Counted from the first letter of the stretch, positions 1-45,676 are shown. The stretch is DNA of 53,652 nt from Candidatus Limnocylindria bacterium (GCA_036569845.1 DATCPY010000065.1:1-53652), one strand, 5' to 3'. A program made the numbers and translations. Notes: generated from the sequence alone by a model not told the origin.

Positions 1-289
1 CTTCGTCGATGCCGGCCCGCGCGAGCCAGCGGCGAAGCTCCGCGCCCGCGCGGCCGGAGAACGGCATCCGTGTCGTGAGCTCGACGATCCCTGGCGCCTG
101 GCCGACGATCATCACGCGATCGGTGACGTCGCCGGCGACGACGGGGGCGGCCGCGTCGAGGTAACCCGCCTCAACGCACTTCGTGCACGCGCGGATCCGG
201 GCGTGCAGGCGCTTGAGCTTCGCCGCGTCGGTCGGATCGCGCACGACCATCGCCGCGTCGGCCTTGGCGCGCTGTAGATGCGATCTCAT
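1..289 (-). CDS. Uracil-DNA glycosylase superfamily protein (Fe-S family 4/5-like), N-terminal part. The gene runs off the window start.
   Basis: Manual minus-strand translation from ATG at 289 gives MRSHLQRAKADAAMVVRDPTDAAKLKRLHARIRACTKCVEAGYLD...RVMIVGQAPGIVE...PFSGRAGAEL. The CxxC near the N-terminus and the GQAPG and FSGxxG motifs fit the UDG superfamily. It is absent from the ORF track because it is truncated by the window edge. Confidence 0.6.
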   Translation of the reverse strand, partial: MRSHLQRAKADAAMVVRDPTDAAKLKRLHARIRACTKCVEAGYLDAAAPVVAGDVTDRVMIVGQAPGIVELTTRMPFSGRAGAELRRWLARAGIDE

Positions 290-328
290 GGGCTTCACAC
301 GACGTTATGAGATGTGCATATTTGAGGA

Positions 329-1291
329 ATGGAACGACGACGATCGCTCCGCATCGATCGCGAACGGCTGGCGTGGGCGGCCGGTTTCTACGACGGGGAA
401 GGCACGACCTTCGCGAAGTCTGATAGCGACCGTCCTGGCTACCATCAGCTCTATGTCTCCGTCCCGCAGGCGGGAATCTCTACGCCACGCGTCCTCGAGC
501 GCTTCCGATCCTCACTGTTCGGCATGGGCAGGATCGACCCGCCCTCGACGAACGGCGCATACGTTTGGCGTGCGCGTGGCTTCGTTGACGCTCAGCAGTC
601 GGTGATCTGTCTTTGGCCGTATCTCGGGACGATCAAGAGGCAACAGGCTGCGGCCGCGATGCGTCGCGTATCGGGCCAGTTCAGCAGCGGCAGATACCGG
701 GCAAGACCCCCGAAGTCTAGACCGGTACTCGTCGAACATCGCATCTCGCGGCCGAGTGATCCCTCGCGGCTCGATCGCGCTTGGGCCGCGGGGTTCCTCG
801 ACGCCGAGGGTTGCTTTGGTCTCGCTCGAAGCCATAGGCGGGGTGACGGTTCGTCGTGGTATCGGATCCGAGCCTCCGCCAGCCAAAAGGGCGAGATCGG
901 CCGACCGCCGGAGGTCCTCGAGCAGCTGCATCGCGTGTTGGACGGCATCGGACGCATCGAGCGCCACGGCGAACCCGATGACTTCAAGTGGCTGGTCGAG
1001 GGAGTTCCCGCCGTGCGACAGGTTCTCACCATCGTTGGTCCATGGCTCAGCTCGGTGAAGCGGGAACAGGCGTGGAAGGCGCTCGACGACTTTCTCGGCC
1101 AGCGGCGGATCCACGGCGATCACGAACGTTGCGTTCGCGGGCACGCGTACGACAAGCGGGTGCTGCTGCAGGGCGGCCGTAGCCGCGGCTACTGCAATAC
1201 GTGCCGACGGTTGCTGGATCGACGGAAGCGAGCCGCGCAAGGGGTCGCTCCGCGTCAGTTCCGGAACGTCGCGCGTCGCTACACTGAATGA
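329..1291 (+). mobile_element. Free-standing double-motif LAGLIDADG homing endonuclease with a C-terminal Cys/His zinc-ribbon-like tail
   Basis: 320-aa ORF with two LAGLIDADG-type motifs, LAWAAGFYDGEG (residues about 14-25) and RAWAAGFLDAEGCFGL (about 150-165). The tail is ERCVRGHAYDKRVLLQGGRSRGYCNTCRRLL (CxxxH...CxxC). Third-codon positions look more A/T-rich than in neighbouring genes. Confidence 0.8.
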
Positions 1292-1297
1292 CGTCCA

Positions 1298-1374
1298 CGG
1301 GGTGTGGCCTAGCCCGGTTTAAGGCGCCACTCTGGGGGAGTGGAGACTCGCGGGTTCAAATCCCGCCACCCCGA
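1298..1374 (+). tRNA. tRNA-Pro: tRNA-Pro (anticodon GGG); CCA not encoded
   Basis: Manual cloverleaf: acceptor CGGGGTG/CACCCCG; D arm GCCT-AGCCCGGTTTA-AGGC; anticodon arm CCACT-CTGGGGG-AGTGG (U33, GGG at 34-36, G37); T arm GCGGG-TTCAAAT-CCCGC; discriminator A. The variable region seems to be 6 nt, which is slightly unusual. Confidence 0.85.
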
Positions 1375-1393
1375 CTGCCAGTAACCTACGAGG

Positions 1394-2692
1394 CTACGCC
1401 TCCACCGCCGCTGCCACGCTTGCCGGGAGCGCGACGCGGAACGTCGTGCCCTTCCCCACCTCGCTGTCGGCCCAAATGCGCCCGTTGTGGCGGTCGACGA
1501 TCTCCTTGGTGATGTAGAGACCGAGCCCCATGCCGCCAACATCACGCGCGAGGCGGTCGGGGGATCGGTAGAAGAGGCCAAAGACGCGGGCCAGCTCAGC
1601 CGGGCGGATGCCGATCCCGTGATCCTCGACCGTGAACTCGATCTCCTGCGCACCCACCCGCGTCACCGTCACCTCGATGGCACCGCCGTCGGGCGAGTAC
1701 TTCATGGCGTTCCCGATCAGGTTGTTGAGCACCTGCTCCAAGTGGTCGCGGTCACCTCGCACGCCGAGCTTGTGGTCGGGGTCGTAGTGCAGGCGGAGGT
1801 CGTGCTTCGTCGCCATCAGCTGGTGGCGCCGCATGACCTCCGCGAGGAGCTCGGGTAGATCCACGTCCGACACGCGAAGCTCGAGCCGTCCGGATTCGAT
1901 CCGCGAGACGTCGAGCAGCTCGTCGACGAGCCGAGCAAGCTTTGAGGTCTGCCGCTGCACGACCTCGAGCTGCTCGAGGAGGGTCTCCTCCTCTTTCTTC
2001 CAGTCCGCCTCGGCCGGCCTGCCCGCGCCCAGGCGCCGCTTGATCCGCCGCACCGCGATCTGCACGAATCCGGACATCGCCGTGATCGGCGTTTTCAGCT
2101 CGTGGGATGCGATCGAGAGGAACTGCGACTTCAGCTTGTCCAGCTCCTGCAGCTTCTCGTAGCTCGTCTGCAGCTCGGCACGGGCCTGGTCCAGCTCTTC
2201 GACGCGTTCCTGCAGCGAGTGCGTCGCCTCGGCGACGCGATCCTGCAGACCTTCGTTGAGCTCGTGGATCGTCTGGTTCGCCGCCTCGAGCTCTGTCACG
2301 CGCGTGCGCAGCTGCTCGCCGAGCCGCCGCCGCTCGATGCCGCGCGCGACCGTCGCGCGCAGCTCCTCCACGTCCGCGGGCTTGAGCATGTAGTCGTACG
2401 CGCCTTCGCGGAGCGCCTTCACGGCGGACTCGAGCGAGGCGTACCCGGTGAGCACGATGCCAACGGTGTCGCGCGATCGTTTGCGCGCCGCCGCGAGCAC
2501 GTCCATGCCGTCGAAGTCGTCGAGCCGGAGGTCGGTCAGCACGAGGTCGAACTCCTCGGCCTCGATCTGCGACAGCGCGTCCTGACCCCGGAGCGCGGTC
2601 GCGACGCTGTAGCCGTCCATCTCGAGGATCGCGGCCATCGTGATCGTGACGCTCTCCTCGTCATCGACGACCAGCACCCTAGGCGGCGGCAT
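1394..2692 (-). CDS. Hybrid response-regulator receiver / histidine kinase (REC, coiled coil, HisKA, HATPase_c)
   Basis: The N-terminus VLVVDDEESV...LVLTDLRLDDFDGMDV...LKP is a REC domain. A long coiled coil follows, then the H-box SIASHELKTPITAM and the G-boxes DHGIGI and GMGLGLYITKEIV. ATG at 2692 overlaps the upstream kinase stop by 14 nt. Confidence 0.9.
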   Translation of the reverse strand: MPPPRVLVVDDEESVTITMAAILEMDGYSVATALRGQDALSQIEAEEFDLVLTDLRLDDFDGMDVLAAARKRSRDTVGIVLTGYASLESAVKALREGAYDYMLKPADVEELRATVARGIERRRLGEQLRTRVTELEAANQTIHELNEGLQDRVAEATHSLQERVEELDQARAELQTSYEKLQELDKLKSQFLSIASHELKTPITAMSGFVQIAVRRIKRRLGAGRPAEADWKKEEETLLEQLEVVQRQTSKLARLVDELLDVSRIESGRLELRVSDVDLPELLAEVMRRHQLMATKHDLRLHYDPDHKLGVRGDRDHLEQVLNNLIGNAMKYSPDGGAIEVTVTRVGAQEIEFTVEDHGIGIRPAELARVFGLFYRSPDRLARDVGGMGLGLYITKEIVDRHNGRIWADSEVGKGTTFRVALPASVAAAVEA

Positions 2693-4751
2693 CTGGCGGC
2701 GGACCTCCGATCGGGAGCGTCATGCTGAAGACCGAGCCGCCGCCGGGCTGGTTGCGCACTTGCAAACGCCCGCCGTGGCTCTGCGCGATCCCAAGGCTCA
2801 CCCAGAGGCCGAGGCCGGTGCCCTTTTTGCCCTTCGTCGAGAAGAACGGCTCGAAGATGTGCGCAAGGTATTCCTCCGCGATCCCCGGCCCGGTGTCCGC
2901 GACCTGGATGCGCACCGCATCGGTCCGAATGAAACCCGAGGCCGCGTCACGATGCGATTCGGTCGACACGGTGACGAGCCCGCCCTTCGGCATCGCCTCG
3001 GCCGCGTTCAGCACGAGGTTGAGGATGACCTGCTTGATCTGGTCCGATGAGGCCATGACCTTCGGCAGGTCCGGCTGGAGCTTCTTCTCCACCTTCACGT
3101 TGCGCTCGCGGAGCCGCTTCGCGACCAGGGCCTCGGCCTCCTCGATGAGCGCGTTCAGGTCGGTCGGCACGAGGTCCGCCGCCGGCCGGTAGAAGCCGAG
3201 CATCTGCCGGAGGATCCGGCTCATCCGCTCGGTCTCTTTCATCGCGATGTTCAAGAACTTGGCGTTCGGGTCATCGTCGGGAATGCGCTTCACGAGGAGG
3301 TAGAGGGCGTTCTGGATCGCCTCGAGCGGGTTGTTGATCTCGTGCGCGATCGAGGCTGCGAGCCGGCCGGTCGCGGCGAGCTTCTCGGACTCGAAGAGAG
3401 CCTGCTCCAGCCGGCGGCGCTCGAGCTCGCGAAGGCGACCGACGTCCTGCATGACCGACACGGTCGCGATGGTCGCGCCGACGGTGTCGCGGACCTCGTT
3501 CGCGGTCACCTGCAGCTCGAGCTCCTCACCCGTGTCGACGTCGGTGAGCCGCAGCTCGCCGGTCCGCCGGGTCTCGGGATCGAGAGACAGCTGGGCCAGG
3601 AACGAGGTGAACTTCGCGTCGTTGCGCATCGCGACCTGGTTTCGGCGCGATTGCACGAGCGGATCGCGCGGCGGCTTGAACAGCCGATCGGCCGCTGCGT
3701 TCATGCTGACGATCTCGTTCGTGTTGTCGACGACGATGATCGGGTTCGGCACGTTGCGGAGCACGAGATCCAAACGGTCCCGCTCCATCCGGATCTCCTG
3801 GTCGACGGACTGCAGGCGCTGGATGTTCGCGGATAGCTCCTGGGTGACGTGCCGCAGGTCAGTCACGTTCTTGAGGACCGATACGACGCCCTTGGCGCCG
3901 ATGCGGTAATTGGTCGCCGGCGAGGTGATGACCTCGAAGATGAGCTCGTCGCCTTCGATCGGGTCGACGAGGGTCAGCTCACGGGTGCGCTCGCTCGCGC
4001 TCTGGAGATTCCAGGTCGAGAGCGCCGCGGTGAACAGGAAGTTGTTCATCGAGATCGCGTGCGCCTTTCCGGCGCTGTCGTCCTTGCCGCTCTTGAACAG
4101 CAGCTCGGCGCTGTGGTTCGCGAGCACGAGCTCGTTCTGGTCGTCGGTCACCACGACGGGGTCGGCGAAGGCGTTGACCATCCACCAGAGCCATTCCTTC
4201 TCGATCGCGTGGGCCTCGGCGCCGAGGCGTAGCTCGGCGACGGAACGGGCCTGTGCCAGGAGGCTCCCGGCCTGCGACGCGAACGGGGCGAGGGCCCGTA
4301 CATCGGCATCGCTCGCCGGCGCGCCCTTCGAGAGCAGCACCACGCCGATCGGCGGCTGATCGGCGCCGCGCAACGGCGCGACGACGAATGACTCGAAGCC
4401 GAGCTCCGTGAGGATCTCCCGCGTCGTCGGCGTGACCCGCTCGTCGGAGGCCACGTCGTCGACCCGCTGCGGCACCCCGGAGTGGAACGCGACGATGCTC
4501 GGATCCTGGAGGTTCGCCAGAGGGACCGAGAACGCCTCAGCGATCTGATCGGCGATGCCGCGGCCGAATCGGCCGCGGATCACGCGCGTCCGTTCATCGG
4601 CGAGCGCTACGAGCGATCGCTCGTAGCCGAACGCGCGAGCCAGACCATCGAGCACCGGCAGGAGCGCCGCTTCGGGATCGGTCCCGATCAGCAGCTCTCG
4701 CGGAAGGGCCTCGAACTCGTCGAGCGCGGTGCGCTCGATCGCGCCGGCCAT
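2679..4751 (-). CDS. Cytoplasmic sensor histidine kinase (GAF, two PAS-like regions, HisKA, HATPase_c)
   Basis: 690 aa. The N-terminal region is GAF-like (LDGLARAFGYERSLVAL...VVAPLRG...IGVVLL). The central part has PAS-like segments. The H-box is ASIAHEINNPLEAI and the ATP-lid is GTGLGLWVSLGIAQSHGGRLQV. No obvious TM segment. Confidence 0.88.
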   Translation of the reverse strand: MAGAIERTALDEFEALPRELLIGTDPEAALLPVLDGLARAFGYERSLVALADERTRVIRGRFGRGIADQIAEAFSVPLANLQDPSIVAFHSGVPQRVDDVASDERVTPTTREILTELGFESFVVAPLRGADQPPIGVVLLSKGAPASDADVRALAPFASQAGSLLAQARSVAELRLGAEAHAIEKEWLWWMVNAFADPVVVTDDQNELVLANHSAELLFKSGKDDSAGKAHAISMNNFLFTAALSTWNLQSASERTRELTLVDPIEGDELIFEVITSPATNYRIGAKGVVSVLKNVTDLRHVTQELSANIQRLQSVDQEIRMERDRLDLVLRNVPNPIIVVDNTNEIVSMNAAADRLFKPPRDPLVQSRRNQVAMRNDAKFTSFLAQLSLDPETRRTGELRLTDVDTGEELELQVTANEVRDTVGATIATVSVMQDVGRLRELERRRLEQALFESEKLAATGRLAASIAHEINNPLEAIQNALYLLVKRIPDDDPNAKFLNIAMKETERMSRILRQMLGFYRPAADLVPTDLNALIEEAEALVAKRLRERNVKVEKKLQPDLPKVMASSDQIKQVILNLVLNAAEAMPKGGLVTVSTESHRDAASGFIRTDAVRIQVADTGPGIAEEYLAHIFEPFFSTKGKKGTGLGLWVSLGIAQSHGGRLQVRNQPGGGSVFSMTLPIGGPPPDAAA

Positions 4752-4769: not shown

Positions 4770-5072
4770 CTAGCGACGTTCCGCGGCGCCGGCCGGTGCC
4801 GACGACGGCGTGCCCGACATCCCGCCCGAGCCGATCGATCCACCGCTGCCCGATCCGGCAGCGGGGCGAGCGACGGTCGACGTGATGCCGAGGGCCTCGG
4901 CGTAGCGGAGGTACGTGTCGATCGACGCGACGACGACGCGAGCCTCGACGGTGATCAGGTCGATGCCGACGAGCGAGACCCGGATCCAGGCATCGATGAC
5001 GATGCCCTTGTCCAGGATCCGGTCGAGGACATCGATGAGGCTGGTGCCACCAGCGGCGCGTTCAACTGGCAT
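4770..5072 (-). CDS. gvpA: Major gas vesicle structural protein GvpA with a Gly/Ser-rich C-terminal extension
   Basis: [52 protein letters not shown] is almost colinear with the canonical GvpA core ([49 protein letters not shown]). An ATG start is present. Confidence 0.93.
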
Positions 5073-5079
5073 TTCTTAC

Positions 5080-5403
5080 CTACCGTTTCGGATTCGCGGA
5101 CTTGAGCGTGCGTTCGAGATCGGCAATGCGCGCTTCGAGACGTTTGATTTCTCCCGCTCCATCGCCACCGCTCGCGCCTGGCTCGACGAGCCGCTTGTCG
5201 TACCGCCACCAGTTCAGCCCGATCTGCTCGGCCTTGTCGATCGAGCAGACCAGGAGCCGGATGCGGATCGTGAGCAGCTCGACGTTCGCGAGCGAGATGC
5301 TGATGTCACCCGCGACCACGAGGCCCTTGTCGAGGACCCGGTCGAGGATGTCGATGATGCTCGTCGACGGCGCGGGCGAGATCCCGCGTCCACTCATTGT
5401 CAT
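5080..5403 (-). CDS. gvpJ: Gas vesicle protein GvpJ/GvpM (GvpA family)
   Basis: SIIDILDRVLDKGLVVAGDISISLANVELLTIRIRLLVCSIDKAEQIGLNWW shows the GvpA-family fold signature, and the trailing WW motif is typical of GvpJ/M. Confidence 0.88.
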   Translation of the reverse strand: MTMSGRGISPAPSTSIIDILDRVLDKGLVVAGDISISLANVELLTIRIRLLVCSIDKAEQIGLNWWRYDKRLVEPGASGGDGAGEIKRLEARIADLERTLKSANPKR

Positions 5404-5410
5404 TGGCGGC

Positions 5411-5731
5411 TCACAATAGCTTTCCGATCGGACCGAGGCCCAGGTTGAGATCGTCGGGGTCCAGGTCGAAGGCCAGCGCCATCTCCCGGACTTTCGCTTC
5501 CAGCCGCATCAGTGCGAGTCCCACCCGCTCGATCTCGTCATCGCTCAGCGTGCCTCCGTCCATCCGTCTGATCGCCTGTCGCTCGAGCAGCTGCCGAAAG
5601 AACTCGACGAGGGTGAGCACCAGCTTGGCCAACCCCTGCTCGACGCCCTCCGGGTCGACATTGACGCGGTCCGGCAGGATCCCGCGGACCCGCTCCAGCT
5701 CTTTCCGGAGCGCCCCGATCTCATCCTCCAC
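5411..5731 (-). CDS. gvpK: Gas vesicle protein GvpK
   Basis: 106 aa. GLAKLVLTLVEFFRQLLERQAIRRMDGGTLSDDEIERVGLALMRLE matches the conserved GvpK core as I recall it. The GTG start overlaps the upstream gene by 11 nt. Confidence 0.8.
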   Translation of the reverse strand: MEDEIGALRKELERVRGILPDRVNVDPEGVEQGLAKLVLTLVEFFRQLLERQAIRRMDGGTLSDDEIERVGLALMRLEAKVREMALAFDLDPDDLNLGLGPIGKLL

Positions 5732-6470
5732 GGCCGCTCCCGAGCTCCTCGGTGAAGCTGTAGGGCGGCCACGGCCCGCTCACCACCCCGCGAACGCCCG
5801 CGATCGCGCCCACGGCCGACGTCGCCCGCGCCTTCAGCGCGCCGGCCTCGTCCCTCCGAGCCAGTAGCGACATGGACAGCGCCACCTCAGCGCTCGGGCA
5901 ACTTTCGTGCCGAGCGTCTGCTTGGTCGATCGACAGCTCGACGCGGAGCCGCTCCGCGAACGCGTCGGCCAGATACCGGCGTTCGTCGGTGACGGCATGC
6001 GCCGCTCGCTTGCGATCGAGGAATTTCCGGCCGGCCCCGTCCCCGTCCTTCGTGCGGCCGGGCCCGGCTTGGCCGGCCCCGGCCGAGCCCCATTCAAAGG
6101 CGCCTGGCCGCACGATTTCGGCGGCATCTTGCCAGAGCAGGGTCACCGCGACTTCTTGGCTCTCACCGAGCCGGTCGATGGCGGCGCTGAACCGGTCTTG
6201 ATCGGTCTCGAGCGATCGTCGGGCGGCAGCCTCGTCAATGAGCCAGGTGCCGAACCGGACGGGCAAGCATGGCCCCGCCTCGCACAGCACCGCGACCAGG
6301 TCGTGATGGGCGAACGCGTCGTCGCGCGAGAGCGTCGGCTCGCCATCCCACCTCGTCGCCCACAATCCGAGCTCGCCGGCGGTGATCTGCTCGAGGGGCC
6401 GGCCGCGAAGCCCCGCCTCCGGGCCATCGGCGGCGCGGCGCGTGATCGCGTGCGCCAGGAATCGGGTCAC
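5721..6470 (-). CDS. gvpL: GvpL/GvpF family gas vesicle protein (paralog 3), carrying an in-frame copy of a GC-rich hairpin repeat
   Basis: 249 aa. It ends with SGPWPPYSF, the typical GvpL/F C-terminal motif. The N-terminal LPVRFGT resembles the GvpF/L core. GTG start in a GTGA overlap with the gvpS-like stop. Confidence 0.75.
   Translation of the reverse strand: MTRFLAHAITRRAADGPEAGLRGRPLEQITAGELGLWATRWDGEPTLSRDDAFAHHDLVAVLCEAGPCLPVRFGTWLIDEAAARRSLETDQDRFSAAIDRLGESQEVAVTLLWQDAAEIVRPGAFEWGSAGAGQAGPGRTKDGDGAGRKFLDRKRAAHAVTDERRYLADAFAERLRVELSIDQADARHESCPSAEVALSMSLLARRDEAGALKARATSAVGAIAGVRGVVSGPWPPYSFTEELGSGRGG
6038..6097. repeat. GC-rich REP-like hairpin element, copy 1 (inside the gvpL/F paralog CDS)
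   Basis: CGTCCCCGTCCTTCGTGCGGCCGGGCCCGGCTTGGCCGGCCCCGGCCGAGCCCCATTCAA matches 16554-16613 at 56/60 positions by manual alignment. It contains a 13-bp imperfect stem (6055-6067 / 6073-6085). Confidence 0.8.
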
Positions 6471-6664
6471 TTCGTGCGTGCTTCCTTCTGGGCGATGGTC
6501 TCGACGGCCGTCAGGATGACGTTGAGGCCGAGGTAGATCAGGTCAACGCCCGCGACGGAGATCGTGGCCTCGCCGGTGATGACCACGCCGCGGTTCAGCA
6601 GCCGGTCGACGAGATCGAGGACGCTGAGCTCCTCGTCGGGGAGCGCCGCGAGCGGGCCGGTCAT
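6467..6664 (-). CDS. gvpS: Small GvpA-family protein (GvpS-like)
   Basis: 65 aa starting at the internal ATG (6664) of the long track ORF 6467..7264: MTGPLAALPDEELSVLDLVDRLLNRGVVITGEATISVAGVDLIYLGLNVILTAVETIAQ. ATGA overlap with the upstream stop. Confidence 0.8.
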   Translation of the reverse strand: MTGPLAALPDEELSVLDLVDRLLNRGVVITGEATISVAGVDLIYLGLNVILTAVETIAQKEARTK

Positions 6665-7446
6665 GACAGCTCGACCGTCGAGAACCGGTACGCCGGCCAG
6701 GGACCGCTGAGCTCCAGCGCATAGCCGCGCGCGCCCCACGCCGCGCCGAAGGAGCTGCGGAGCGCATCGAGCGTGGCCGTCGCGTCGCGAGCTGCGAGCA
6801 CCGAGAACCGCGCGATCATCCCGCCGCCGGCGTCCTCGACGAGCGGCTCGCGGAACAGCGGCATCGTGGCGCCCTCGAATGACCCCGTCGCCGCGGCGAC
6901 GGCCGCCGCGTCGGCCGCGCGCAGCTCCTGGCGCTTCGTCTCGTCGAGCCGGCGGGCGACGAGGTAGGCGCGCCCCGGCGGCGCTGCCTCGATCTCGGCC
7001 CGCAGCGCGCGGAGCGCCTCGCTCCCCTGCTCCACGGCCGCCAGCGCCGCGTCCTTGTCCCGCCGGACCACCGCGATCCACTCCGCCTTGCCCCGAAGGG
7101 ACTCGAACCGCGGGCCGAGCTCCGCGCCGCGTTCGCGAAGCATCCGGGTCACGCCGTCCGCGTCGCGGAAGACGGTACCGAACGAGAGCGGGACGAGCGG
7201 ATCGCACGCACTCGCGAGCGCGCCATTCACGTCCTGATGGCGGACGGCGCGCGGAGTGAGCCACTCCATATCGGACAGGTGCGCGTTCAGCGGGGCCTCG
7301 GCGTAGTCGCTTTCGGGAACGTCGCTCACGAATGCCGCGAGGTCGCCATCGCGGATCGCGCGGATCGCCCCGTCATCGAGGCCCCGCAGGCCGCCGGGCT
7401 CCGCGCAGACGGCGCGCGCGATCGCGTAGACATAGACGAGGCTCAC
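6661..7446 (-). CDS. gvpL: GvpL/GvpF family gas vesicle protein (paralog 2)
   Basis: Starts at GTG 7446 (GTGA overlap with the gvpG stop): VSLVYVYAIAR...LVPLSFGTVFRD...SGPWPAYRFS. The part of track ORF 6661..7845 upstream of this is an Arg/Gly-rich artefact. Confidence 0.8.
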   Translation of the reverse strand: MSLVYVYAIARAVCAEPGGLRGLDDGAIRAIRDGDLAAFVSDVPESDYAEAPLNAHLSDMEWLTPRAVRHQDVNGALASACDPLVPLSFGTVFRDADGVTRMLRERGAELGPRFESLRGKAEWIAVVRRDKDAALAAVEQGSEALRALRAEIEAAPPGRAYLVARRLDETKRQELRAADAAAVAAATGSFEGATMPLFREPLVEDAGGGMIARFSVLAARDATATLDALRSSFGAAWGARGYALELSGPWPAYRFSTVELS

Positions 7447-7781
7447 GCGGGCCGGTCGAGCTCCTCGGGCGTCTCGATGATGGCGACCCGCCCCGATCCT
7501 GTCTCCGCGACGAGCCCGGCCATCTGCTCCTCCGCGAGCTGCTTGCGGTACGCGCGGATGGTCGAGAACTGCGCCAGGAGCGGGGCCTCTTGGCGTCGGA
7601 ACTCCGCCTCGTCGATCTCGCCGTCCTCGAGGCGCATGTTCAGGAGGATGAGCTCGTCCTTCACCGCGGAGTCGTCGGTCATCTCGACCTCGGCCATCTG
7701 GATGACCTGATTGATGCAGTACTTGATGCCCGCTGCAGGAAGCGAGTACGGGAGCATGAGCAGCTTGCCGAGGCCGAACAC
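7443..7781 (-). CDS. gvpG: Gas vesicle protein GvpG
   Basis: 112 aa. The N-terminus FGLGKLLMLPYSLPAAGIKYCINQVIQMAE and the following acidic helix (ELILLNMRLEDGEIDEAEF) fit my recollection of GvpG. GTG start 3 nt after the gvpF stop. Confidence 0.75.
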   Translation of the reverse strand: MFGLGKLLMLPYSLPAAGIKYCINQVIQMAEVEMTDDSAVKDELILLNMRLEDGEIDEAEFRRQEAPLLAQFSTIRAYRKQLAEEQMAGLVAETGSGRVAIIETPEELDRPA

Positions 7782-7784
7782 GGC

Positions 7785-8603
7785 CTAGACCGAAGCCGAG
7801 CGCTCGAGCTGCAGGCGGATCGTCACGAAGTTGTATGGCGGCCACGGACCCGTGTAGCGGAACGAGAGCGTGCCCTCGAACTTCTTGCCGATGTCGTGGA
7901 CCTTCGCGTCGAAATGCTCCGCCTGGTCGCGGGCCACGAGGAACGCCGCGTTCATGATCATCTTGTCGCCGATGACCTTGTTCGACCGCGACGCGATCGC
8001 GGCATCGCGGAGATGGTCGTAGATCTCCCGAACGAACGAGTCGGACTTGTCCGCCAGCGCCTGCTCGACGAGCCGGCCAAGCTGCATGCGGGCGAAGTAC
8101 GTCGAGGACTGGGTGTTCGTCTGGATCTCGGCCTTGAGCCGGCGGATCTCCTCGTTCTGCTCCTCGATCTCGCGCAGGACCTGCTCGCGATCCCAGTTCA
8201 CCTTGAGACCGAACTCCAGCTTGTCCTTCATCTTCAGCAGCACATCGCGAAGCGCGTCATACGTGTCCTTCAGGAACTCGACGGTGTCGTTGTCGGTCTT
8301 GAACAGCGTCCCGAAGCTCATCGGCACCGGCGTGAAGCCGTGCTCGTTCATGACGACTTCCTGCACGTGTTCGTGGGTCAGGGCGTTCTCGCGGGTCGGG
8401 TCGTAGACGATGAGCGGTGCGCGGCTGACCACGGCCGCGAGATCCCGGTGGTGCACGGTGAAGACCTCGTCACCGCGGCCACCGATGCCGATGGTCCCGA
8501 AGGTCCGCGACTCGCCTGCCTCGATGATGCAGTACACGTAGACGCCGTCCTGGGCGGCCTCGCCCTCGGCGACAGCTGCGGTACCGCCTCGCTCTTCGCT
8601 CAT
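7785..8603 (-). CDS. gvpF: Gas vesicle protein GvpF
   Basis: 272 aa. GVYVYCIIEAGE...FTVHHRDLAAVVS...THEHVQEVVMNEHGFTPVPMSFGTLFK...YTGPWPPYNF is strongly GvpF-like. It is Lys/Glu-rich and visibly less GC-biased than the two other L/F paralogs. Confidence 0.9.
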   Translation of the reverse strand: MSEERGGTAAVAEGEAAQDGVYVYCIIEAGESRTFGTIGIGGRGDEVFTVHHRDLAAVVSRAPLIVYDPTRENALTHEHVQEVVMNEHGFTPVPMSFGTLFKTDNDTVEFLKDTYDALRDVLLKMKDKLEFGLKVNWDREQVLREIEEQNEEIRRLKAEIQTNTQSSTYFARMQLGRLVEQALADKSDSFVREIYDHLRDAAIASRSNKVIGDKMIMNAAFLVARDQAEHFDAKVHDIGKKFEGTLSFRYTGPWPPYNFVTIRLQLERSASV

Positions 8604-8615
8604 CTGCGCGGAATA

Positions 8616-8840
8616 TTACGTCGCGAGGTTGAGGAATTCGCGCGTGAAGCCGTACAGCTTCTCGCGGTCCTCGGGGAGCACCGGGCGCAGGCCGTAGTGG
8701 TTGATGACCCGGATCTGAGCGGCGGTCCACTCCTTCCAGCACTCGGCGCAGACGCGCTGCTCGATCTCAAGGCCGAGCGCGCCGGGCAATCCGGTCTTCC
8801 CCGCACCTTGGCGAGTGTTGCCGCAGCGCGCACACGTCAC
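8616..8840 (-). CDS. yggX: YggX-like Fe(2+)-trafficking / oxidative-damage protection protein
   Basis: 74 aa from GTG 8840: VTCARCGNTRQGAGKTGLPGALGLEIEQRVCAECWKEWTAAQIRVINHYGLRPVLPEDREKLYGFTREFL. The pattern C..(x)..PG.LG..I......W..W......IN...L.....R..L......FL matches my recollection of the YggX family. Confidence 0.65.
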   Translation of the reverse strand: MTCARCGNTRQGAGKTGLPGALGLEIEQRVCAECWKEWTAAQIRVINHYGLRPVLPEDREKLYGFTREFLNLAT

Positions 8841-8848
8841 GTCGGTCG

Positions 8849-9181
8849 TCAGCGGACGAGGCCGATCCGGTGTAGCGGCGCGTAACGGACGAACGGCCGG
8901 CCTACCACCGCCGAGCCTGGGATCGCCCCGAACTGCCGCGAGTCCGTCGACTCCGCGGGATCCGGATGGTCGCCTCGAACGATCACCTGATCGCCCGCGA
9001 CCGCGCTCACGCGCTTCACGAGGAGCCGCTCGGGCTCGCGCGGGTCGGTCGCGACCACGAGCTCGCCAGGGCGTGGCGGGCGGCGAAGCTGCCGCACGAG
9101 CAGCCAATCACCGTCCTGGAAGGTGGGCTCCATGCTGCGGCCGGCGACGGCGACCCGGAACAGCGCCGTCGCCGGTCTCAC
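8849..9181 (-). CDS. sodX: Nickel-SOD maturation protease SodX (S26/S24 signal-peptidase-like)
   Basis: 110 aa from GTG 9181 (GTGA overlap with the sodN stop). It has the GRSMEPTF catalytic Ser motif and LVKRV...GD (Lys motif). It sits immediately downstream of sodN. Confidence 0.8.
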   Translation of the reverse strand: MRPATALFRVAVAGRSMEPTFQDGDWLLVRQLRRPPRPGELVVATDPREPERLLVKRVSAVAGDQVIVRGDHPDPAESTDSRQFGAIPGSAVVGRPFVRYAPLHRIGLVR

Positions 9182-9588
9182 TTCTTGGTCGCCCAGAAGA
9201 TGTCGGCGATCTCCTTGACCGCCGCCTGGAGATCGGCCGCGGCCTTCGCGTCGACGCTCTGCTTGTTCTTCGAGCAGAGCTTCGCCGCCTTCCAGAAGGT
9301 GTCGTGGAGCTTCGGGTACTTCTCGAGGTGCTCGGGCTTGAAGTAGTCGGTCCAGAGGATGAGCAGCTCCTTTTTGCAGATCTGGGCGTGCTCCTCCTTC
9401 ACCGCGACCGAGCGGATGAACGTGTTGCGGCTGGCCTCGTCCGTGCCGGTCGACGCGGTGATCTTCTCGATCATCTTCGCGACGGTGTCGGACGCGATCT
9501 TCGCCGCGGTCGGGTCGTAGATGCCGCACGGGATGTCGCAGTGGGCGTGCGCCACGAGCCGTGGCGCGATCAGCGAGCGCAGGTCCAT
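9178..9588 (-). CDS. sodN: Nickel-containing superoxide dismutase precursor
   Basis: MDLRSLIAPRLVAHA followed by HCDIPCGIYDP is a 15-aa leader plus the Ni-hook motif (canonical form HCDLPCGVYDP). GGAGG lies 7 nt upstream of the ATG. Confidence 0.92.
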   Translation of the reverse strand: MDLRSLIAPRLVAHAHCDIPCGIYDPTAAKIASDTVAKMIEKITASTGTDEASRNTFIRSVAVKEEHAQICKKELLILWTDYFKPEHLEKYPKLHDTFWKAAKLCSKNKQSVDAKAAADLQAAVKEIADIFWATKK

Positions 9589-34928: not shown

Positions 34929-36380
34929 TCAGTTGACCGCGATCCGCGCGTCGAGCAGCGGCATCCGCGGCCACCAGCTCGGGGAGATCCGCAGGTCGGT
35001 GACCCGGAGCCCCTGGGCGGCAAGGACGTCGCGGGCCTCGGCCGGCGTGCGTCCGGCGAGCGCTCCGCGGATCCGGGCCGAGTCGAGCTGGGCGGACTGG
35101 CTGCCGGCGGCGGTGATCTTCCAGGTGACCCCGTTGTCCGCGACGCTCGCGATCGCGTTGAACTGGGCCGTGCGCTCGTCCAGGGCGTTGCCCGGCGAGG
35201 CCATCGTGCGGTAGCGCTCGAGGGCGGCCTTCGTCGGCTGATCGCCCGCGACGGCGAAGCCCTGCACGCTTGCCGAGACCGAAATGTCAAAGGTGGCCAC
35301 CTCCTTGCCGACCACGTCGCTGACGCTTCCCTGCGACGTCAGCGACGGCGTCCCGACGTAGATGAGGGCGTCGCCGGTGAGCTGCGACTTCCAGCGCAGC
35401 TTCTGGTTGTTCGCTTCATCCGCAAGTGCGCGGTCCACGCTCGCCTTCGCCGTCGCGGCGGTGTAATCCTCGGCCTTCACGACCGGGATGGTCTTCGTCG
35501 CGCCGCCCGCGGTCGCAGCGGGATTCGTCACAAGGTAGCGGCCGCTGTTGCTCACGATGATCCGGTTCGCGGCGATGTTGCCGCTCGCGCCGCCGAGCAC
35601 CGCCTCGACCCCGATATCGGCGGTGCCGGGGATGACGGTCACGAAGACGATGACGCTGCGCGGCAAGGTCTTCGTCTCGGTCGTCGCGAATTGGATCCGA
35701 TCACTGCCGGTCGTGGTCTGGACGACCGTGCCCCTGGGGATCACCAGGTCGTCCGTGGTCTGATTCGAGAACCGCACCGATCCGGTCGCCTTCACATCCT
35801 CGGTGCGCGCGCCGGTCGCGGTACCGGTCACCTTTGTCGTGATCGTCGCCGAGAGCGGCTGGGCCGGGACGTCGCCGCCGGCGCCCGCCCGGATGGTGAA
35901 GGTCGCACCGGGCATCGGGATGGCGGACGGCGACACGGTCACCGCGGCCGAGGGCAGCACGACGATGAGCAGGAGCGCGAGCGCGCCGAGGACGCTGGCG
36001 GCGATGCCGATGGCCCGCGCCGGGGATCCAAGCGAGGGCGCGGGCCGTCGCGCGGCGACGCTCGCGAGCGGTCCGCGCCGGGGCGCGCCGAGCTTCTCGG
36101 TCGGATCGAGCTCTTCGCGCTCGAGCGAGCCCAGTGTCGCGTACGCGGGCACATGGACCGACGCCGCGATCGAACGCGCGCGGGAGTCGCTGGACACCAC
36201 GGCGAGGCGTCGCTGACCGGCGAGCCCCCGCGCGACCTCGAGGAACACGGCATTGCGCGCGAACGGCGCGCCGGCGGGAACGACGAACACGACCGGCGCG
36301 TCGGCCGGCGCGGTGGCCAGCCGCTCCGCGGCGTCGAGGATCGTGGCCCGGGCGTCCAGGTCGATCACGGTCCGGGTCAC
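34929..36380 (-). CDS. Bitopic membrane protein: cytoplasmic N-terminal domain, one TM, large beta-rich extracytoplasmic domain. Family not recognised.
   Basis: 483 aa. The N-terminal approximately 90 aa are soluble (VVFVVPAGAPFARNAVFLEVARG...LAVVSSD). The TM is AIGIAASVLGALALLLIVVLP. The rest is Thr/Val/Gly-rich beta-strand-like sequence. GTGA overlap with the upstream gene. Confidence 0.6.
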   Translation of the reverse strand: MTRTVIDLDARATILDAAERLATAPADAPVVFVVPAGAPFARNAVFLEVARGLAGQRRLAVVSSDSRARSIAASVHVPAYATLGSLEREELDPTEKLGAPRRGPLASVAARRPAPSLGSPARAIGIAASVLGALALLLIVVLPSAAVTVSPSAIPMPGATFTIRAGAGGDVPAQPLSATITTKVTGTATGARTEDVKATGSVRFSNQTTDDLVIPRGTVVQTTTGSDRIQFATTETKTLPRSVIVFVTVIPGTADIGVEAVLGGASGNIAANRIIVSNSGRYLVTNPAATAGGATKTIPVVKAEDYTAATAKASVDRALADEANNQKLRWKSQLTGDALIYVGTPSLTSQGSVSDVVGKEVATFDISVSASVQGFAVAGDQPTKAALERYRTMASPGNALDERTAQFNAIASVADNGVTWKITAAGSQSAQLDSARIRGALAGRTPAEARDVLAAQGLRVTDLRISPSWWPRMPLLDARIAVN

Positions 36381-37408
36381 GAGTACGCGTCCGCGCCGAG
36401 CGCAGCGGCACCGGCCGCGACGAGGTCATCTGCCCCGAGGGTCGCGTCCGCCACCAAGCGCGGCACGAGGCTCGTGCGCAACGGGAGGACATCAACGGGG
36501 CTCCCCCGCTCCGCGGTCGCGGCGGCGGCGAGCGCGCTCGCGAGCGCCGCGAGCGCCTCGGGCACCCCGGCCACGTACCACCGGCCCGGCTGCTCCAGAC
36601 CGAGCGACCGCACCGTCGCGACGATGCAGCGCGCCCATACGGAGGCATCGGATGCGACCGCGCGCGCGATGAGCGCATCACGACCCACGGCGAACACGCG
36701 TGTGCCGGTGACCCGGCTGTCTCGGACGACGGTCACCGTGGTCTGATCGGCCGCGAGGCGGGCGATCCCCGCTTCGGCCACACCCGACTCCGCGACCAGC
36801 CGCCCGAGCGCGTAGGCGCCCGACGTCGCCGTGCCTCGCCGTTTCGCGGACTCGAGCGTCGCGGTGGCGCCGCCGGCCTGGACGAGCGGAGCGAGTGCGA
36901 CGTCGGTCCGCACCTCGAGACGCTGCCCGCGGTCGCCGACCGGCGAGCCGAGACGGCGGCCGTCGAGCACGAAGCCGCCGACGTCGTCGCGCAGCTCGGC
37001 CGTCGCGATGCCCCGCAAGGCCGGGTCATCCCCGGCGAGGTCGCGGGCCGAGCGCGCAGCCGCCTCGCGCGCGAGCCGGATGGCCTTGACCGCTTCTCCC
37101 GGCGAGACCGCATCCCGCTGATCCTCGCGCTCGAAGGTGGTGCTCTCGTGATAGGTCCGGATGTCATCGCCGTCGATCGCGACGACGACTTTCTCCGCGC
37201 GCGCCACGCGCTCCGCGGCCGCGAACGCAGCGACGAGCGCATCGCCGACCGCGCGCCGATCGGAGATGTAGCCGCCGCTCAGCGCGCTCGCCGGGATCGG
37301 CGCGTGGCCGACGCCGGTGACGCGGAAGCGACCGGAGTCGCGATGACCGACGACGACGCGCACGGCTGCCGAGGCGAGCTCGACCCCGGCGACGCCGGGA
37401 CTAGCCAC
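36377..37408 (-). CDS. FtsA/PilM-like actin-fold protein with degenerate nucleotide-binding motifs
   Basis: 343 aa from GTG 37408. It is colinear with the FtsA layout: GVELASAAVRVVVG sits at the phosphate-1 position (normally GLDIGT...), LEVRTDVALAP resembles rLEV..hvvt, and ARLAADQTTVTVV sits at the phosphate-2 position (normally DIGGGTTD). Confidence 0.55.
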   Translation of the reverse strand: MASPGVAGVELASAAVRVVVGHRDSGRFRVTGVGHAPIPASALSGGYISDRRAVGDALVAAFAAAERVARAEKVVVAIDGDDIRTYHESTTFEREDQRDAVSPGEAVKAIRLAREAAARSARDLAGDDPALRGIATAELRDDVGGFVLDGRRLGSPVGDRGQRLEVRTDVALAPLVQAGGATATLESAKRRGTATSGAYALGRLVAESGVAEAGIARLAADQTTVTVVRDSRVTGTRVFAVGRDALIARAVASDASVWARCIVATVRSLGLEQPGRWYVAGVPEALAALASALAAAATAERGSPVDVLPLRTSLVPRLVADATLGADDLVAAGAAALGADAYS

Positions 37409-40085
37409 GACCTCCGAGCTTTTCGCGCACGGCGCGCGCGCCGGCCTCGAGCGCATCGCCGAGGCGCGCGGGGTCCTTGCCGCCACCGGTCGCGCTGTTG
37501 GCGGGGCCGCCGCCGCTCCCGCCGATGATCGACGAGAGCTCCTTCACGAGGTTCCCCGCGTGCACGCGCTCGACGAGATCCTTGCTCACGGCGACCGCGA
37601 GCCCGGGCCGGCCCCCATGGGTCGAGCCGAGCACGGCGACCCCTGAGCCGAGCCCTTCGCGCACCCGGTCGGCCAGGCCGCGGAGGACCTGCTGGTCGTA
37701 GTCGCCGACGTCCAAGACGACGAGCTTCGCGCCGCCGACGGCCTCCGCCTTCGCGACGAGCCCCGCCGCGGTCTGATCGACACCGCTCTTCTGCAACGAC
37801 GCGAGCTGCTTCTCGAGACGCTCGCGCGACTCGGCGATCTGGACGACGGCCTCAGGCAGGCGCGCCGGCGGCACCTTGAGCGCGCCCGCGGCGCGGTCGA
37901 CGCGGTCGCGCATTTCGTGGACCTCGCGGAGCGCGCCTTCGCCGGTCACCGCCTCGATGCGCCGCACGCCCGCCCCGATCGACTCCTCCTTCGTGATGAG
38001 GAACAGCCCGATGTCCCCAGTGCAATGGCAATGCGTCCCGCCGCAGAGCTCGCGCGAGGTCGGGCCGGCCTCGACGACGCGGACCAGGTCCCCGTACTTC
38101 TCGTCGAAGAGGTGGGTCGCCCCGGACGCCAGCGCATCCTGCAGCGGCATCGACTGCGCGTGGACGCTCGCGTTGGTAAGGATCGCGTCGTTCACCTCGT
38201 CCTCGACCCGCCGCAGCTCCTCCGCCGTGAGCGCGCGGCCGAACGTGAAGTCGAAACGGAGATTCGGCGCATGGACGAGCGAACCCGCCTGATGCACATC
38301 GTCGCCGAAGCTGCGGCGCAACGTGGCGTGTAGGAGGTGCGTCGCCGTGTGGTTGCGCATGGTGTGCCGGCGCACGTCTTCGTCGACCGACGCGCGAGCG
38401 GGCGCGCCGGCGCGCAGGACCCCGTCGACGACCTTCGCGCTCATGACGATGACCCGCGCGGCGGCGGTCTGGGTGTCCGCGACGAGCGCGCGGCCCTCGG
38501 AGGTCGTGATGTCGCCGCGGTCGCCGACCTGGCCGCCGCCCTCCGGATAGAAGGGCGTGCGGTCGAGAACGATCTCGACGTCCTGGCCCTCGCGCGCCTC
38601 GTCCACGCGTTGGCCACCGATGACGAGCGCGCGGATGACGGCGTCGGACGCGAGCTCGTCGTATCCGGTGAAGGTGCTCGAGAGACCCTCCTTCTCATGG
38701 AGGTCCGCGTACAGCTGGCCGAAGCGCATCGCGTCCTGCGAGAACTTCGCGGCCGCGCGGCCGCGCTGCCGCTGCGCGTCGAGGAGCTTCTTGAAACCGG
38801 CCTCGTCGACGCCGATCCCCGCGGCGGTCACGAGCTCTCTCGTCATCTCCATCGGGAACCCGAACGTGTCGTACAGCCGGAAGGCCGTTTCCCCGTCGAT
38901 CTCGCCTCGGCCGCCCTGCTTCGCCGCGGCGATCGCCAGGGTGAGCTGCTCCATCCCGCTCGTGAGCGTGCGCTCGAACTTCTCCTCTTCCGCGCCGATC
39001 GTCTCCGCGATCCGCTCGCGGGCCGCGGTGAGCTCGTGGTAATGCTTCTGCATCGACTTCACGACCTCGCCAGAGACCTGCGTGATCGCGCCGGTCCGCA
39101 GGCCGAGCCGCCGGGCGTGGAGTGCGGCGCGCCGGATGAGCCGGCGCAGCACGTAGCCGCGGCCCTCGTTGGACGGCGCGATGCCGTCGGCGATGAGGAA
39201 CGCGGCCGCGCGCGCGTGCTCGGCGACCACGCGCATTGAGGTGTCGCCTGCGGTGTCGTCGCCGTACTTCTTGCCGGTGAGGGTCTCGATCTTCTTCATG
39301 AGCGGCTGGAAGAGATCGGTCTTGAACGTGTCGGTCACGCCCTGGAGGACCTGCGACGTGCGCTCGAGGCCCGCGCCCGTGTCGATGTTCCGCTTGGAGA
39401 GCGGCACCAGGGTGCCGTCCTCCTTGCGGTCGTACTGCTGGAATACGAAGTTCCAGATCTCGAGGTAGCGGCCGCAATCCTCGCCCGGGTTGCAGTCGTG
39501 TGGCTTGACGCCGGGCTGCGGGCCGCGGTCGACGAAGACCTCGCTGCACGGCCCGCATAGGCCGGTCGGGCCCGGCGACCAGAAGTTCGTGTCGTCGCCC
39601 TTCGCGAGGTTGCCGAGCCGGAACACCTTCTCGGGCGGCAGGAGCGCGAGCTCCTTCGTCCAGATGTCGAAGGCCTCGTCGTCATCGAAGTAGACGGTCG
39701 CGACGAGCGTCTTCGGATCGATCTCGAACTGCTCGGTCAGCAGCTCCCAGCCCCAGCCGATCGCTTCCTTCTTCCAGTAGTCGCCGATCCCGAAGTTGCC
39801 GAGCATCTCGAAGAACGTGTTGTGGTACGTGTCGAAGCCGACGACGTCGAGATCGGTGGTCCGGAAGCACTTCTGGACCGTGACCAGCCGCTTCGCCGGC
39901 GGCTGCTTCTTCCCGAGGAAGTACGGCACGATCGGCTGCATCCCTGCACTGGTGAACAGGACGCTCGGGTCGTCCTTCAGGACGAGGGGCGCGCTGGGCA
40001 GGCGGTGATGGCCCTTCTCCTCGAAGAACTTGATGAATCGCTCGCGGATCGTCTGGCTGTCTACGGCGAACGTCCCTTCATACAA
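37401..40085 (-). CDS. alaS: Alanine--tRNA ligase
   Basis: 894 aa. Contains IRERFIKFFEEKGH, FTSAGM, the editing-domain HTATHLLH and CGGTHC, and a C-terminal DHHA1-like region. A TTG start is the only in-frame start near the N-terminus. Confidence 0.95.
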   Translation of the reverse strand: MYEGTFAVDSQTIRERFIKFFEEKGHHRLPSAPLVLKDDPSVLFTSAGMQPIVPYFLGKKQPPAKRLVTVQKCFRTTDLDVVGFDTYHNTFFEMLGNFGIGDYWKKEAIGWGWELLTEQFEIDPKTLVATVYFDDDEAFDIWTKELALLPPEKVFRLGNLAKGDDTNFWSPGPTGLCGPCSEVFVDRGPQPGVKPHDCNPGEDCGRYLEIWNFVFQQYDRKEDGTLVPLSKRNIDTGAGLERTSQVLQGVTDTFKTDLFQPLMKKIETLTGKKYGDDTAGDTSMRVVAEHARAAAFLIADGIAPSNEGRGYVLRRLIRRAALHARRLGLRTGAITQVSGEVVKSMQKHYHELTAARERIAETIGAEEEKFERTLTSGMEQLTLAIAAAKQGGRGEIDGETAFRLYDTFGFPMEMTRELVTAAGIGVDEAGFKKLLDAQRQRGRAAAKFSQDAMRFGQLYADLHEKEGLSSTFTGYDELASDAVIRALVIGGQRVDEAREGQDVEIVLDRTPFYPEGGGQVGDRGDITTSEGRALVADTQTAAARVIVMSAKVVDGVLRAGAPARASVDEDVRRHTMRNHTATHLLHATLRRSFGDDVHQAGSLVHAPNLRFDFTFGRALTAEELRRVEDEVNDAILTNASVHAQSMPLQDALASGATHLFDEKYGDLVRVVEAGPTSRELCGGTHCHCTGDIGLFLITKEESIGAGVRRIEAVTGEGALREVHEMRDRVDRAAGALKVPPARLPEAVVQIAESRERLEKQLASLQKSGVDQTAAGLVAKAEAVGGAKLVVLDVGDYDQQVLRGLADRVREGLGSGVAVLGSTHGGRPGLAVAVSKDLVERVHAGNLVKELSSIIGGSGGGPANSATGGGKDPARLGDALEAGARAVREKLGGRG

Positions 40086-45648: not shown

Positions 45649-45676
45649 GCGGGCAGGCTAGACCCCCGAACAGCCG

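Follow-up and report, generated by a model that had tools for sequence, protein, structure and literature searches.

Gas vesicles are viewed as an aquatic buoyancy device, and the well-studied clusters of gas-vesicle (gvp) genes all have gvpN and usually gvpC. What, then, does a cluster look like that carries neither gene and belongs to a soil lineage? Here, we go through a compact set of eight gvp genes at positions 4770-8603 of a stretch of 53,652 nucleotides (nt) from Candidatus Limnocylindria bacterium (GCA_036569845.1 DATCPY010000065.1:1-53652; hereafter the window), which lie on the minus strand in the order gvpF-G-L-S-L'-K-J-A, L' standing for a third paralog of the GvpF/L family. The reading that we favour, with a probability of roughly 0.7, is that they belong to a vertically inherited gas-vesicle operon of soil Limnocylindria, held under purifying selection and made up of eight core Gvp families and a dedicated kinase module.

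In the review table of characterised clusters gvpA always comes first, and GvpN is listed as conserved in all clusters (PMC9501494), while neither the window nor any of the 80 related loci introduced below gave a match to it. In Hfx. volcanii transformants carrying Hbt. salinarum genes, GvpN serves only to enlarge bicones to cylinders, and the sole role of GvpC is to reinforce the shell; in haloarchaea, GvpA is bound by GvpF, the nucleation complex has GvpL as its platform, and initiation is where J and M act (PMC9501494). In Serratia sp. ATCC 39006, gvpA1, A2, A3, F1, F2, F3, G and K and the regulators gvrA and gvrB are individually required for vesicles to form at all (PMC4982088), and the response of this bacterium to low oxygen is ascribed to gvrA-gvrC, an operon encoded in the cluster (PMC11778176). 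The published phylogenetic screen was limited to organisms with confirmed vesicles (PMC10344784).

How does the window compare with these systems? In B. megaterium (Priestia), whose cluster is gvpAPQBRNFGLSKJTU, the accessory order F-G-L-S-K-J is colinear with that of the window, which inserts L' between S and K (PMC9501494); both lack GvpC, and the GvpA homologues of both are extended at the C-terminus (the chain in structure 7R1C has 88 residues). However, B. megaterium has gvpN, gvpR, gvpT, gvpU, gvpP, gvpQ and a structural gene upstream, whereas the window has no gvpN and no ATPase, carries a third F/L paralog, places gvpA after gvpJ and has two downstream kinases. Streptomyces clusters of the gvpOAFG(YZ)JLSK type come, like the window, from soil organisms, lack gvpN and gvpC and keep the L, S and K genes near one another (L-S-L'-K in the window), but they begin with gvpO-gvpA, place J before L, and have two F/L paralogs and no linked kinases; the window has gvpA as its eighth gene and no GvpO, and the two share 34% identity in GvpF and ~50% in GvpA. 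Serratia sp. ATCC 39006, compared here by its published description, has two operons, gvpA1CNVF1GWA2KXA3Y and gvrA-gvpHZF2F3-gvrB-gvrC (PMC4982088). Its three GvpF/L and three GvpA-family proteins, its essential structural set of the same eight families and its regulatory genes at the gvp operon end are like those of the window; it differs in having gvpC, gvpN, gvpV and the sigma-54 activator GvrA, while Pfam detected no sigma-54 activator domain in any open reading frame (ORF) of the window that was scanned. The cluster of Octadecabacter arcticus plasmid pOA238_160, gvpA ... gvpN-hsp20-F-G-O-J-L-L-S-L-K, shares with the window the F-G start, the L-S-L'-K block and a paralog of the type found between S and K, but has gvpN, gvpO and hsp20, a separate upstream gvpA and no kinases, and its GvpF is 38% identical. 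Homologues of the ATPase ArsA associated with gvp genes, including those of an acidobacterium, were mentioned in passing by Castillo and Saier in 2010 (PMC2963123); like the soil clusters described below, the clusters in those passages have ArsA beside gvpL, gvpJ, gvpK and gvpM-type genes, whereas the Limnocylindria clusters are without ArsA, and the gas-vesicle passages of that paper mention no module of gvpJ, gvpA and a kinase. The cluster of the window is not a member of the B. megaterium, Streptomyces, Serratia or Octadecabacter type.

Family assignment was made with Pfam at gathering scores, together with NCBIfam subfamily cut-offs and sequence matches in the PDB, and every one of the eight ORFs scored above the Pfam gathering score:

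7785-8603, minus strand: gvpF, 272 amino acids (aa); Pfam GvpL_GvpF, 4.7e-74; matches the solved GvpF structures 6L5D and 4QSG
7443-7781, minus strand: gvpG, 112 aa; Pfam GvpG, 2.3e-16; hydrophobic stretch at the N-terminus
6661-7446, minus strand: gvpL, 261 aa; Pfam GvpL_GvpF, 8e-49; GTG start overlapping the gvpG stop codon
6467-6664, minus strand: gvpS, 65 aa; Pfam Gas_vesicle, 2.2e-14; GvpM-like small member of the GvpA family
5721-6470, minus strand: gvpL', 249 aa; Pfam GvpL_GvpF, 1.1e-34; third GvpF/L paralog, between gvpS and gvpK
5411-5731, minus strand: gvpK, 106 aa; Pfam GvpK, 6.1e-34
5080-5403, minus strand: gvpJ, 107 aa; Pfam Gas_vesicle, 1.1e-16; GvpA-family protein with a coiled C-terminal tail
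4770-5072, minus strand: gvpA, 100 aa, shell protein; Pfam Gas_vesicle, 6.5e-17

An earlier sequence-only reading of this DNA had proposed eight consecutive minus-strand gvp genes at these positions, among them a near-canonical GvpA, J-like (107 aa) and S-like (65 aa) proteins of the GvpA family, GvpK, GvpG and three F/L paralogs with a common ending, and the profile searches and translations bear this out throughout. GvpA scores 113 bits against a cut-off of 100 for the NCBIfam GvpA subfamily; its residues 1-71 align to the cryo-electron microscopy structure of Anabaena GvpA (8GBS, 9e-26), and it also matches GvpB of B. megaterium (7R1C, 3e-22). It consists of the canonical 70-aa core, with the conserved alpha-beta-beta-alpha arrangement of the shell protein, and an extra Gly/Ser-rich tail of ~30 aa. 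The motif GPWP(P/A)Y(N/R/S)F lies near the C-terminus of all three F/L proteins. The best NCBIfam match of gvpS is the GvpM model, but it stays under the cut-off of that model, and the length of 261 aa for gvpL agrees with the gene call on identical contigs. Neighbouring gvp genes overlap by 4-11 nt or are separated by 3-7 nt (7 nt between gvpJ and gvpA), and so the cluster has no space for further genes.

The same reading had found no gvpN, gvpO or gvpC in the 53 kb, and three kinds of search agree. Annotated GvpN, O, C, H, I, D and E proteins from Octadecabacter, Streptomyces and Halobacterium plasmids gave no match in a tblastn search of the window (all E > 0.04). As a control, the GvpN queries find each other across three distant lineages at 1e-58 and the GvpO queries at 1e-9 to 1e-13; therefore, the negative result for these two proteins is meaningful. 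Pfam scans of essentially all other ORFs of the window detected neither a GvpN-like AAA+ protein nor a DNA-binding response regulator, and a tandem-repeat search of the window found no long-period repeat of the GvpC kind. GvpC is in general very divergent, so that a non-homologous substitute may be conceivable.

Downstream of gvpA, two kinase genes follow on the same strand:

2679-4751, minus strand: HK1, 690-aa GAF-PAS-HisKA-HATPase histidine kinase (Pfam), beginning 18 nt past gvpA
1394-2692, minus strand: HK2, 432-aa REC-HisKA-HATPase hybrid, i.e., a receiver domain joined to a kinase (Pfam Response_reg 5e-25, HisKA, HATPase_c); its ATG overlaps the end of HK1

gvpA had been taken as the terminal gene, and it is indeed the last gvp gene, but not the last gene in the row. 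As the terminus of the operon it was rejected: HK1 follows directly, HK2 overlaps HK1, and the adjacency of a kinase is kept across five phyla, as described next. No membrane segment was found in HK1 or HK2, and HK1 is soluble. A PDB sequence search with HK1 matched the kinase core only; thus, the signal sensed by HK1 is not inferable from structures.

To what family does such an arrangement belong? An alignment of GvpA was scanned against one genome per GTDB species, which gave 517 confirmed relatives, and the best 80 of them (loci numbered L0xx), with flanks of up to 10 kb on each side, were annotated from six-frame ORFs with phmmer. All 80 come from soil metagenome-assembled genomes (MAGs) and are distributed over Acidobacteriota (Thermoanaerobaculia, Vicinamibacteria, Blastocatellia and Terriglobia), Gemmatimonadota, Methylomirabilota, Dormibacterota and Chloroflexota, and in none of them did phmmer detect GvpN, O, C or H within the 10 kb. 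In 77 of the 80, gvpJ is the immediate upstream neighbour of gvpA. Where at least 2.5 kb of downstream sequence made the locus assessable (70 of 80), a PAS kinase directly follows gvpA in 61, and in 39 of these the next gene encodes a receiver or receiver-kinase. The architecture of the kinase, an N-terminal GAF-like region, two PAS domains, HisKA and HATPase in ~700 aa, is kept across phyla, the second regulatory gene being a stand-alone receiver or a hybrid, and similarity of the kinase to that of the window tracks similarity of GvpF (Spearman 0.46, p 4e-4, n=57).

Three layouts are found in this family (HK, histidine kinase; REC, receiver). F-G-(ArsA)-L-S-(L')-K-J-A-HK-REC occurs in Limnocylindria, Blastocatellia/Pyrinomonadaceae, Solibacteraceae and Gemmatimonadaceae, J-A-HK-REC-F-G-(ArsA)-L-S-(L')-K in many Acidobacteriota and Methylomirabilota, and (ArsA)-L-S-(L')-K-J-A-HK-REC-F-G in Terriglobales and Dormibacterota. 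All three are rotations of one circular order, and many relatives start with gvpJ-gvpA. The rotated units can be written as three modules, [F G ArsA], [L S L' K] and [J A HK REC], whose adjacencies are kept while the start point shifts; tandem duplication followed by loss is one possible mechanism. Seven loci of Vicinamibacterales (L022, L029, L031, L043, L046, L049 and L060) have two gvpA copies, one before F-G-L-S and one after gvpJ, with an additional hybrid kinase between the blocks and gvpK shifted downstream. Six others, mostly Thermoanaerobaculia (L007, L011, L015, L017, L026 and L032), have the order F-G-ArsA-L-S-K-J-A without L' and without a kinase after gvpA; thus, not every member of the family has the kinase module.

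The window shares with this family the adjacency of gvpJ and gvpA, the downstream PAS kinase and receiver, and a GvpF of at least ~58% identity. Indeed, GvpF is 58-71% identical to that of the soil family across phyla, and only 34-38% to the proteins of Octadecabacter, Streptomyces and Halobacterium; such high identity between phyla points to a horizontal spread of these clusters from one soil phylum to another, as far as can be judged from sequence comparison. The cluster family is abundant in soil metagenomes, where GvpF has thousands of homologues. The sequence-only reading had called the gene order unusual. This stands for clusters described in the literature searched, since the order is absent from the review table with its leading gvpA (PMC9501494), but it does not stand for genomes, in which the order is common: as a rule, the best 80 of the 517 related loci show this order or one of its rotations, and the order is not unique. 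Judged by gene content and synteny, the eight-gene order is the standard layout, in one rotation and without ArsA, of a widespread and barely described soil family, and the Limnocylindria version is its leanest form.

With respect to the host, the nearest homologues of GvpF, at 80-97% identity, are metagenomic, and the named ones belong to Candidatus Limnocylindria of the Chloroflexota, in keeping with the idea of a compact gvp set in a poorly studied lineage of high guanine-plus-cytosine (GC) content. An identical GvpF protein is present on 16 contigs, among them assembly GCA_036844645.1. The order sodN-S26-yggX-gvpFGLSL'KJA-HK1-HK2-tRNA-Pro is identical in independent Limnocylindria contigs from forest soil and other samples. 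With L001 as the reference, the ratio of nonsynonymous to synonymous substitution (dN/dS) is 0.13-0.33 for all eight gvp genes and HK1; HK1, at 0.13, is as low as gvpA, and gvpF (0.13; 89% identity to L001) is the best-conserved accessory gene of the cluster. Because the synteny is conserved, the setting is one of housekeeping genes and dN/dS is low, the locus appears to be vertically inherited, selected and chromosomal rather than a recent island. HK2 is also conserved in L001, L002, L006, L073 and L008. The genes that flank the gvp-kinase row are as follows:

9178-9588, minus strand: sodN, nickel superoxide dismutase (Sod_Ni match)
~8849-9181, minus strand: S26/S24 peptidase (Peptidase_S26 match), an S26-type maturation peptidase with sodN
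8616-8840, minus strand: yggX-like Fe(2+)-trafficking gene (Pfam Iron_traffic, 2.7e-11), ending 12 nt before gvpF
1298-1375, plus strand: tRNA-Pro(GGG) (ARAGORN and Rfam), the boundary downstream of HK2

The sodN-S26-yggX genes upstream of gvpF are conserved in Limnocylindria and were seen in Chloroflexota loci only; the yggX-like gene occupies the equivalent position in L001, L002, L073 and L086-L088, and is possibly on the gvp transcript. Oxidative stress genes and gas vesicles may thereby be linked in one transcript, and the position of the gvp genes just behind the nickel superoxide dismutase and YggX-like genes is suggestive of redox. On the other side, tRNA-Pro(GGG) also follows HK2 in L001 (17381-17459), L002 (17175-17250), L006 (7073-7148) and L073 (13681-13755), and Rfam found this one tRNA and nothing else in the window. 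In the window, L001 and L006 it runs convergently with the cluster, in L002 and L073 co-directionally; therefore, a small local inversion has occurred among the relatives.

How would such a cluster work? Besides GvpA for the shell, it codes for two minor paralogs of this protein (GvpJ and GvpS), three assembly proteins of the GvpF/L family, GvpG and GvpK. Judging from homologous systems, the conical caps would be started by a nucleation complex of F/L/L', G, K, J and S, and the ribbed shell would then arise through polymerisation of GvpA. Without GvpC the shell would be unreinforced, and the Gly/Ser-rich tail of GvpA may or may not compensate for this. Without GvpN or an ArsA-type ATPase, growth from bicone to cylinder would be ATPase-independent, limited, or helped by a gene elsewhere. 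With both GvpC and an ATPase lacking, the vesicles could be weak or of small size if neither the tail of GvpA nor some unlinked factor makes up for the loss. The operon would run on into the GAF-PAS kinase and the receiver-kinase hybrid as the conserved regulatory module of the family, and this pair most likely couples vesicle production to an intracellular signal. If the regulators in the Serratia cluster are taken as a guide, our best guess for this signal is oxygen or redox. As to the output of the kinases, no DNA-binding regulator is linked to them in the window, and many relatives have a single-domain receiver only. A bolder version, to which we give little credence, would take the eight genes as a minimal set free of ATPase and GvpC, gated by a cytoplasmic relay of PAS kinase and receiver without DNA-binding output, and as a mainstream trait of soil phyla.

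The question of an ATPase is sharpened by the sister clusters. In at least 44 of the 80 loci, gvpG and gvpL are separated by a gene of ~650-700 aa that has two GKGGVGKTT P-loops and a match to the GET3/ArsA/TRC40 family (TIGR00345, 5e-124; examples are L025 4878-6992 and L077 5607-7553). Most sister clusters outside Chloroflexota have it, with cases in Acidobacteriota, Gemmatimonadota, Methylomirabilota and Dormibacterota. This tandem ArsA/GET3 ATPase, an optional feature of the family, is absent from the window, in which gvpG and gvpL overlap, and from L001, L002, L006, L073 and L008; it is lacking in the Limnocylindria relatives and in one further Chloroflexota locus. With neither a GvpN nor an ArsA gene, the Limnocylindria cluster is left without any ATPase. 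ArsA is present in the outgroup clusters that are nearest by GvpF, and parsimony favours its loss in the Chloroflexota lineage. In GvpN-less sister clusters, ArsA may be an alternative energiser of vesicle assembly.

Several points weigh against the operon reading that we favour. Vesicles are known in no organism with this cluster family; all 80 loci come from MAGs, and no cultured carrier was found among the best 120 matches listed for a Terriglobales GvpF query, which are only MAGs. S. coelicolor, likewise without gvpN and gvpC, is not reported to form vesicles under any tested condition (PMC4982088). The functional link between kinases and gvp genes is suggested by conserved adjacency. Transcript boundaries are inferred, as the scan of the window found no minus-strand terminator and a single sigma-70-like match on the minus strand (9648-9619, upstream of sodN), which is weak evidence with 0.6 expected by chance, and so assigns neither promoter nor terminator confidently. 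That most sister clusters have ArsA hints at a step that consumes energy and would be missing from the Limnocylindria version; GvpO, essential in Haloferax (PMC9501494), is absent from the window; and our view of the genome is limited to these 53 kb.

The last three of these points lead to the alternative that survives best, namely that the cluster is incomplete: essential partners, such as GvpN or an ArsA-type ATPase and a GvpO-like or GvpC-like protein, would be encoded elsewhere, and the eight genes would not be sufficient. Besides the haloarchaeal need for GvpO, GvpN is needed for full-size vesicles (PMC9501494; PMC4982088). On the other hand, no such partner is found in the 53 kb or within the 10-kb flanks of L001, L002, L006 and L073, several lineages have further clusters without ArsA (L008, L012, L023, L027, L028, L070 and L078), and the essential structural set of Serratia forms bicones without such partners (PMC4982088). 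We regard an incomplete cluster as possible, though on balance unlikely.

More doubtful is the idea that no buoyancy organelle is made, the proteins being expressed for some other role in soil, e.g., in stress response, or forming tiny non-buoyant bicones, as has been proposed for cryptic Streptomyces clusters. The habitat is soil rather than a water column, the ATPase is absent, and the case of S. coelicolor fits such a view. However, the core of GvpA is near-identical to the shell-forming proteins of Anabaena and B. megaterium, all eight genes are under purifying selection, and the set equals the essential set of Serratia; moreover, soil pores flood, so that functions in buoyancy or gas space seem plausible there.

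Could the kinases be mere neighbours, functionally unlinked to the gvp genes? Such independence would fit the abundance of two-component genes in these genomes, the lack of a linked DNA-binding output and the 9 of the 70 assessable loci, mostly Thermoanaerobaculia, in which gvpA is followed by no kinase. This is nevertheless improbable: the PAS kinase is found after gvpA in the other 61 loci, in five phyla and in spite of the rotated orders, with a gap of 18 nt or an overlap, a conserved architecture, a similarity that co-varies with GvpF and a dN/dS as low as that of gvpA.

The three F/L paralogs had raised the further suspicion of different histories within one cluster. As had been noticed from the sequence, gvpF is rich in Lys and Glu (together 14%, against 8-9% in gvpL and gvpL') and lower in GC (0.640, against 0.740 in gvpL and 0.719 in gvpL'). 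The difference is confined to codon positions 1 and 2, and GC at third positions (GC3; 0.908 in gvpF, 0.905 in gvpL and 0.832 in gvpL') is within the range of housekeeping genes. Since GC3 of gvpF matches that of gvpL and of housekeeping genes, its lower GC reflects amino-acid composition. F, L and L' rank the relatives identically (L006 < L001 < L002 ~ L073 < L008), with distances ~3 times larger in L and L', and identity across phyla is 58-71% for GvpF against 27-33% for L and L'. A neighbour-joining tree of 170 F/L sequences, drawn without support values, gives three clades that correspond to gene position, i.e., before gvpG, before gvpS, and between gvpS and gvpK. The clade before gvpS holds gvpL of the window and Streptomyces GvpL, and that between gvpS and gvpK has 31 sequences, 29 of them located between S and K, including gvpL' and the Octadecabacter paralog. 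As these comparisons indicate, the three paralogs are ancient orthologous groups that are co-inherited, GvpF being under ~3-fold stronger constraint. Nor is their number unusual, as had been supposed: Serratia requires F1, F2 and F3 (PMC4982088), and Octadecabacter has four. A mosaic cluster, in which gvpF was acquired separately from the two Ala/Arg-rich paralogs, would fit the contrast in GC and in Lys and Glu, but it is hardly credible given the equal GC3, the identical ranking of relatives, the separate cross-phylum clade of each paralog and the ~3-fold faster evolution of L and L', which explains the contrast.

The rest of the window consists of housekeeping genes (Der, PlsY, GpsA, IspH, ScpAB, shikimate enzymes, AlaRS, AspRS, HisRS and MnmA) and a few signalling proteins. 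Three other features may be mentioned here:

326-1291, plus strand: ORF of ~320 aa between a uracil-DNA glycosylase fragment (2-304, minus strand) and tRNA-Pro; two LAGLIDADG-like motifs, WAAGFYDGEGT and WAAGFLDAEGC (Pfam LAGLIDADG_1, 3e-5); GC3 lower, at 0.73
45662-49015, plus strand: signalling protein of 1117 aa with an adenylate/guanylate cyclase domain, AAA_16 and TPR repeats
34929-36425 and 36377-37543, both minus strand: long ORFs of high GC3 (498 and 388 aa) without a Pfam match

The first of these occurs in L006 at 69-72% DNA identity, is missing from L001, where tRNA-Pro abuts the uracil-DNA glycosylase gene, and has no match in L002 and L073; from its motifs and distribution it looks like a free-standing insertion of the homing-endonuclease type beside a tRNA gene. 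The signalling protein matches the NCBIfam TOMM kinase/cyclase model at 2e-83, yet with 281 bits against a cut-off of 706. The kilobase around the two long ORFs is the GC maximum of the window (0.76).

A gas-vesicle operon is known as a kind, while the kinase-linked family without gvpN, gvpO and gvpC and with an optional ArsA is apparently undescribed; no description of it was found in the searchable full-text literature, the nearest remark being that on the association with ArsA (PMC2963123). If functional, the operon would bring gas vesicles into major uncultured soil phyla, with a role there in, for example, flooded pores or access to oxygen. Acoustic reporter genes could be developed from the ATPase-free set of eight genes, which would offer a compact basis for them, and the conserved module of gvpJ, gvpA, kinase and receiver offers a defined candidate for the regulatory input into organelle formation. 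Should the bolder version of a self-sufficient minimal set be true, gas vesicles would be a mainstream, signal-controlled trait of dominant uncultured soil phyla and not an aquatic speciality.

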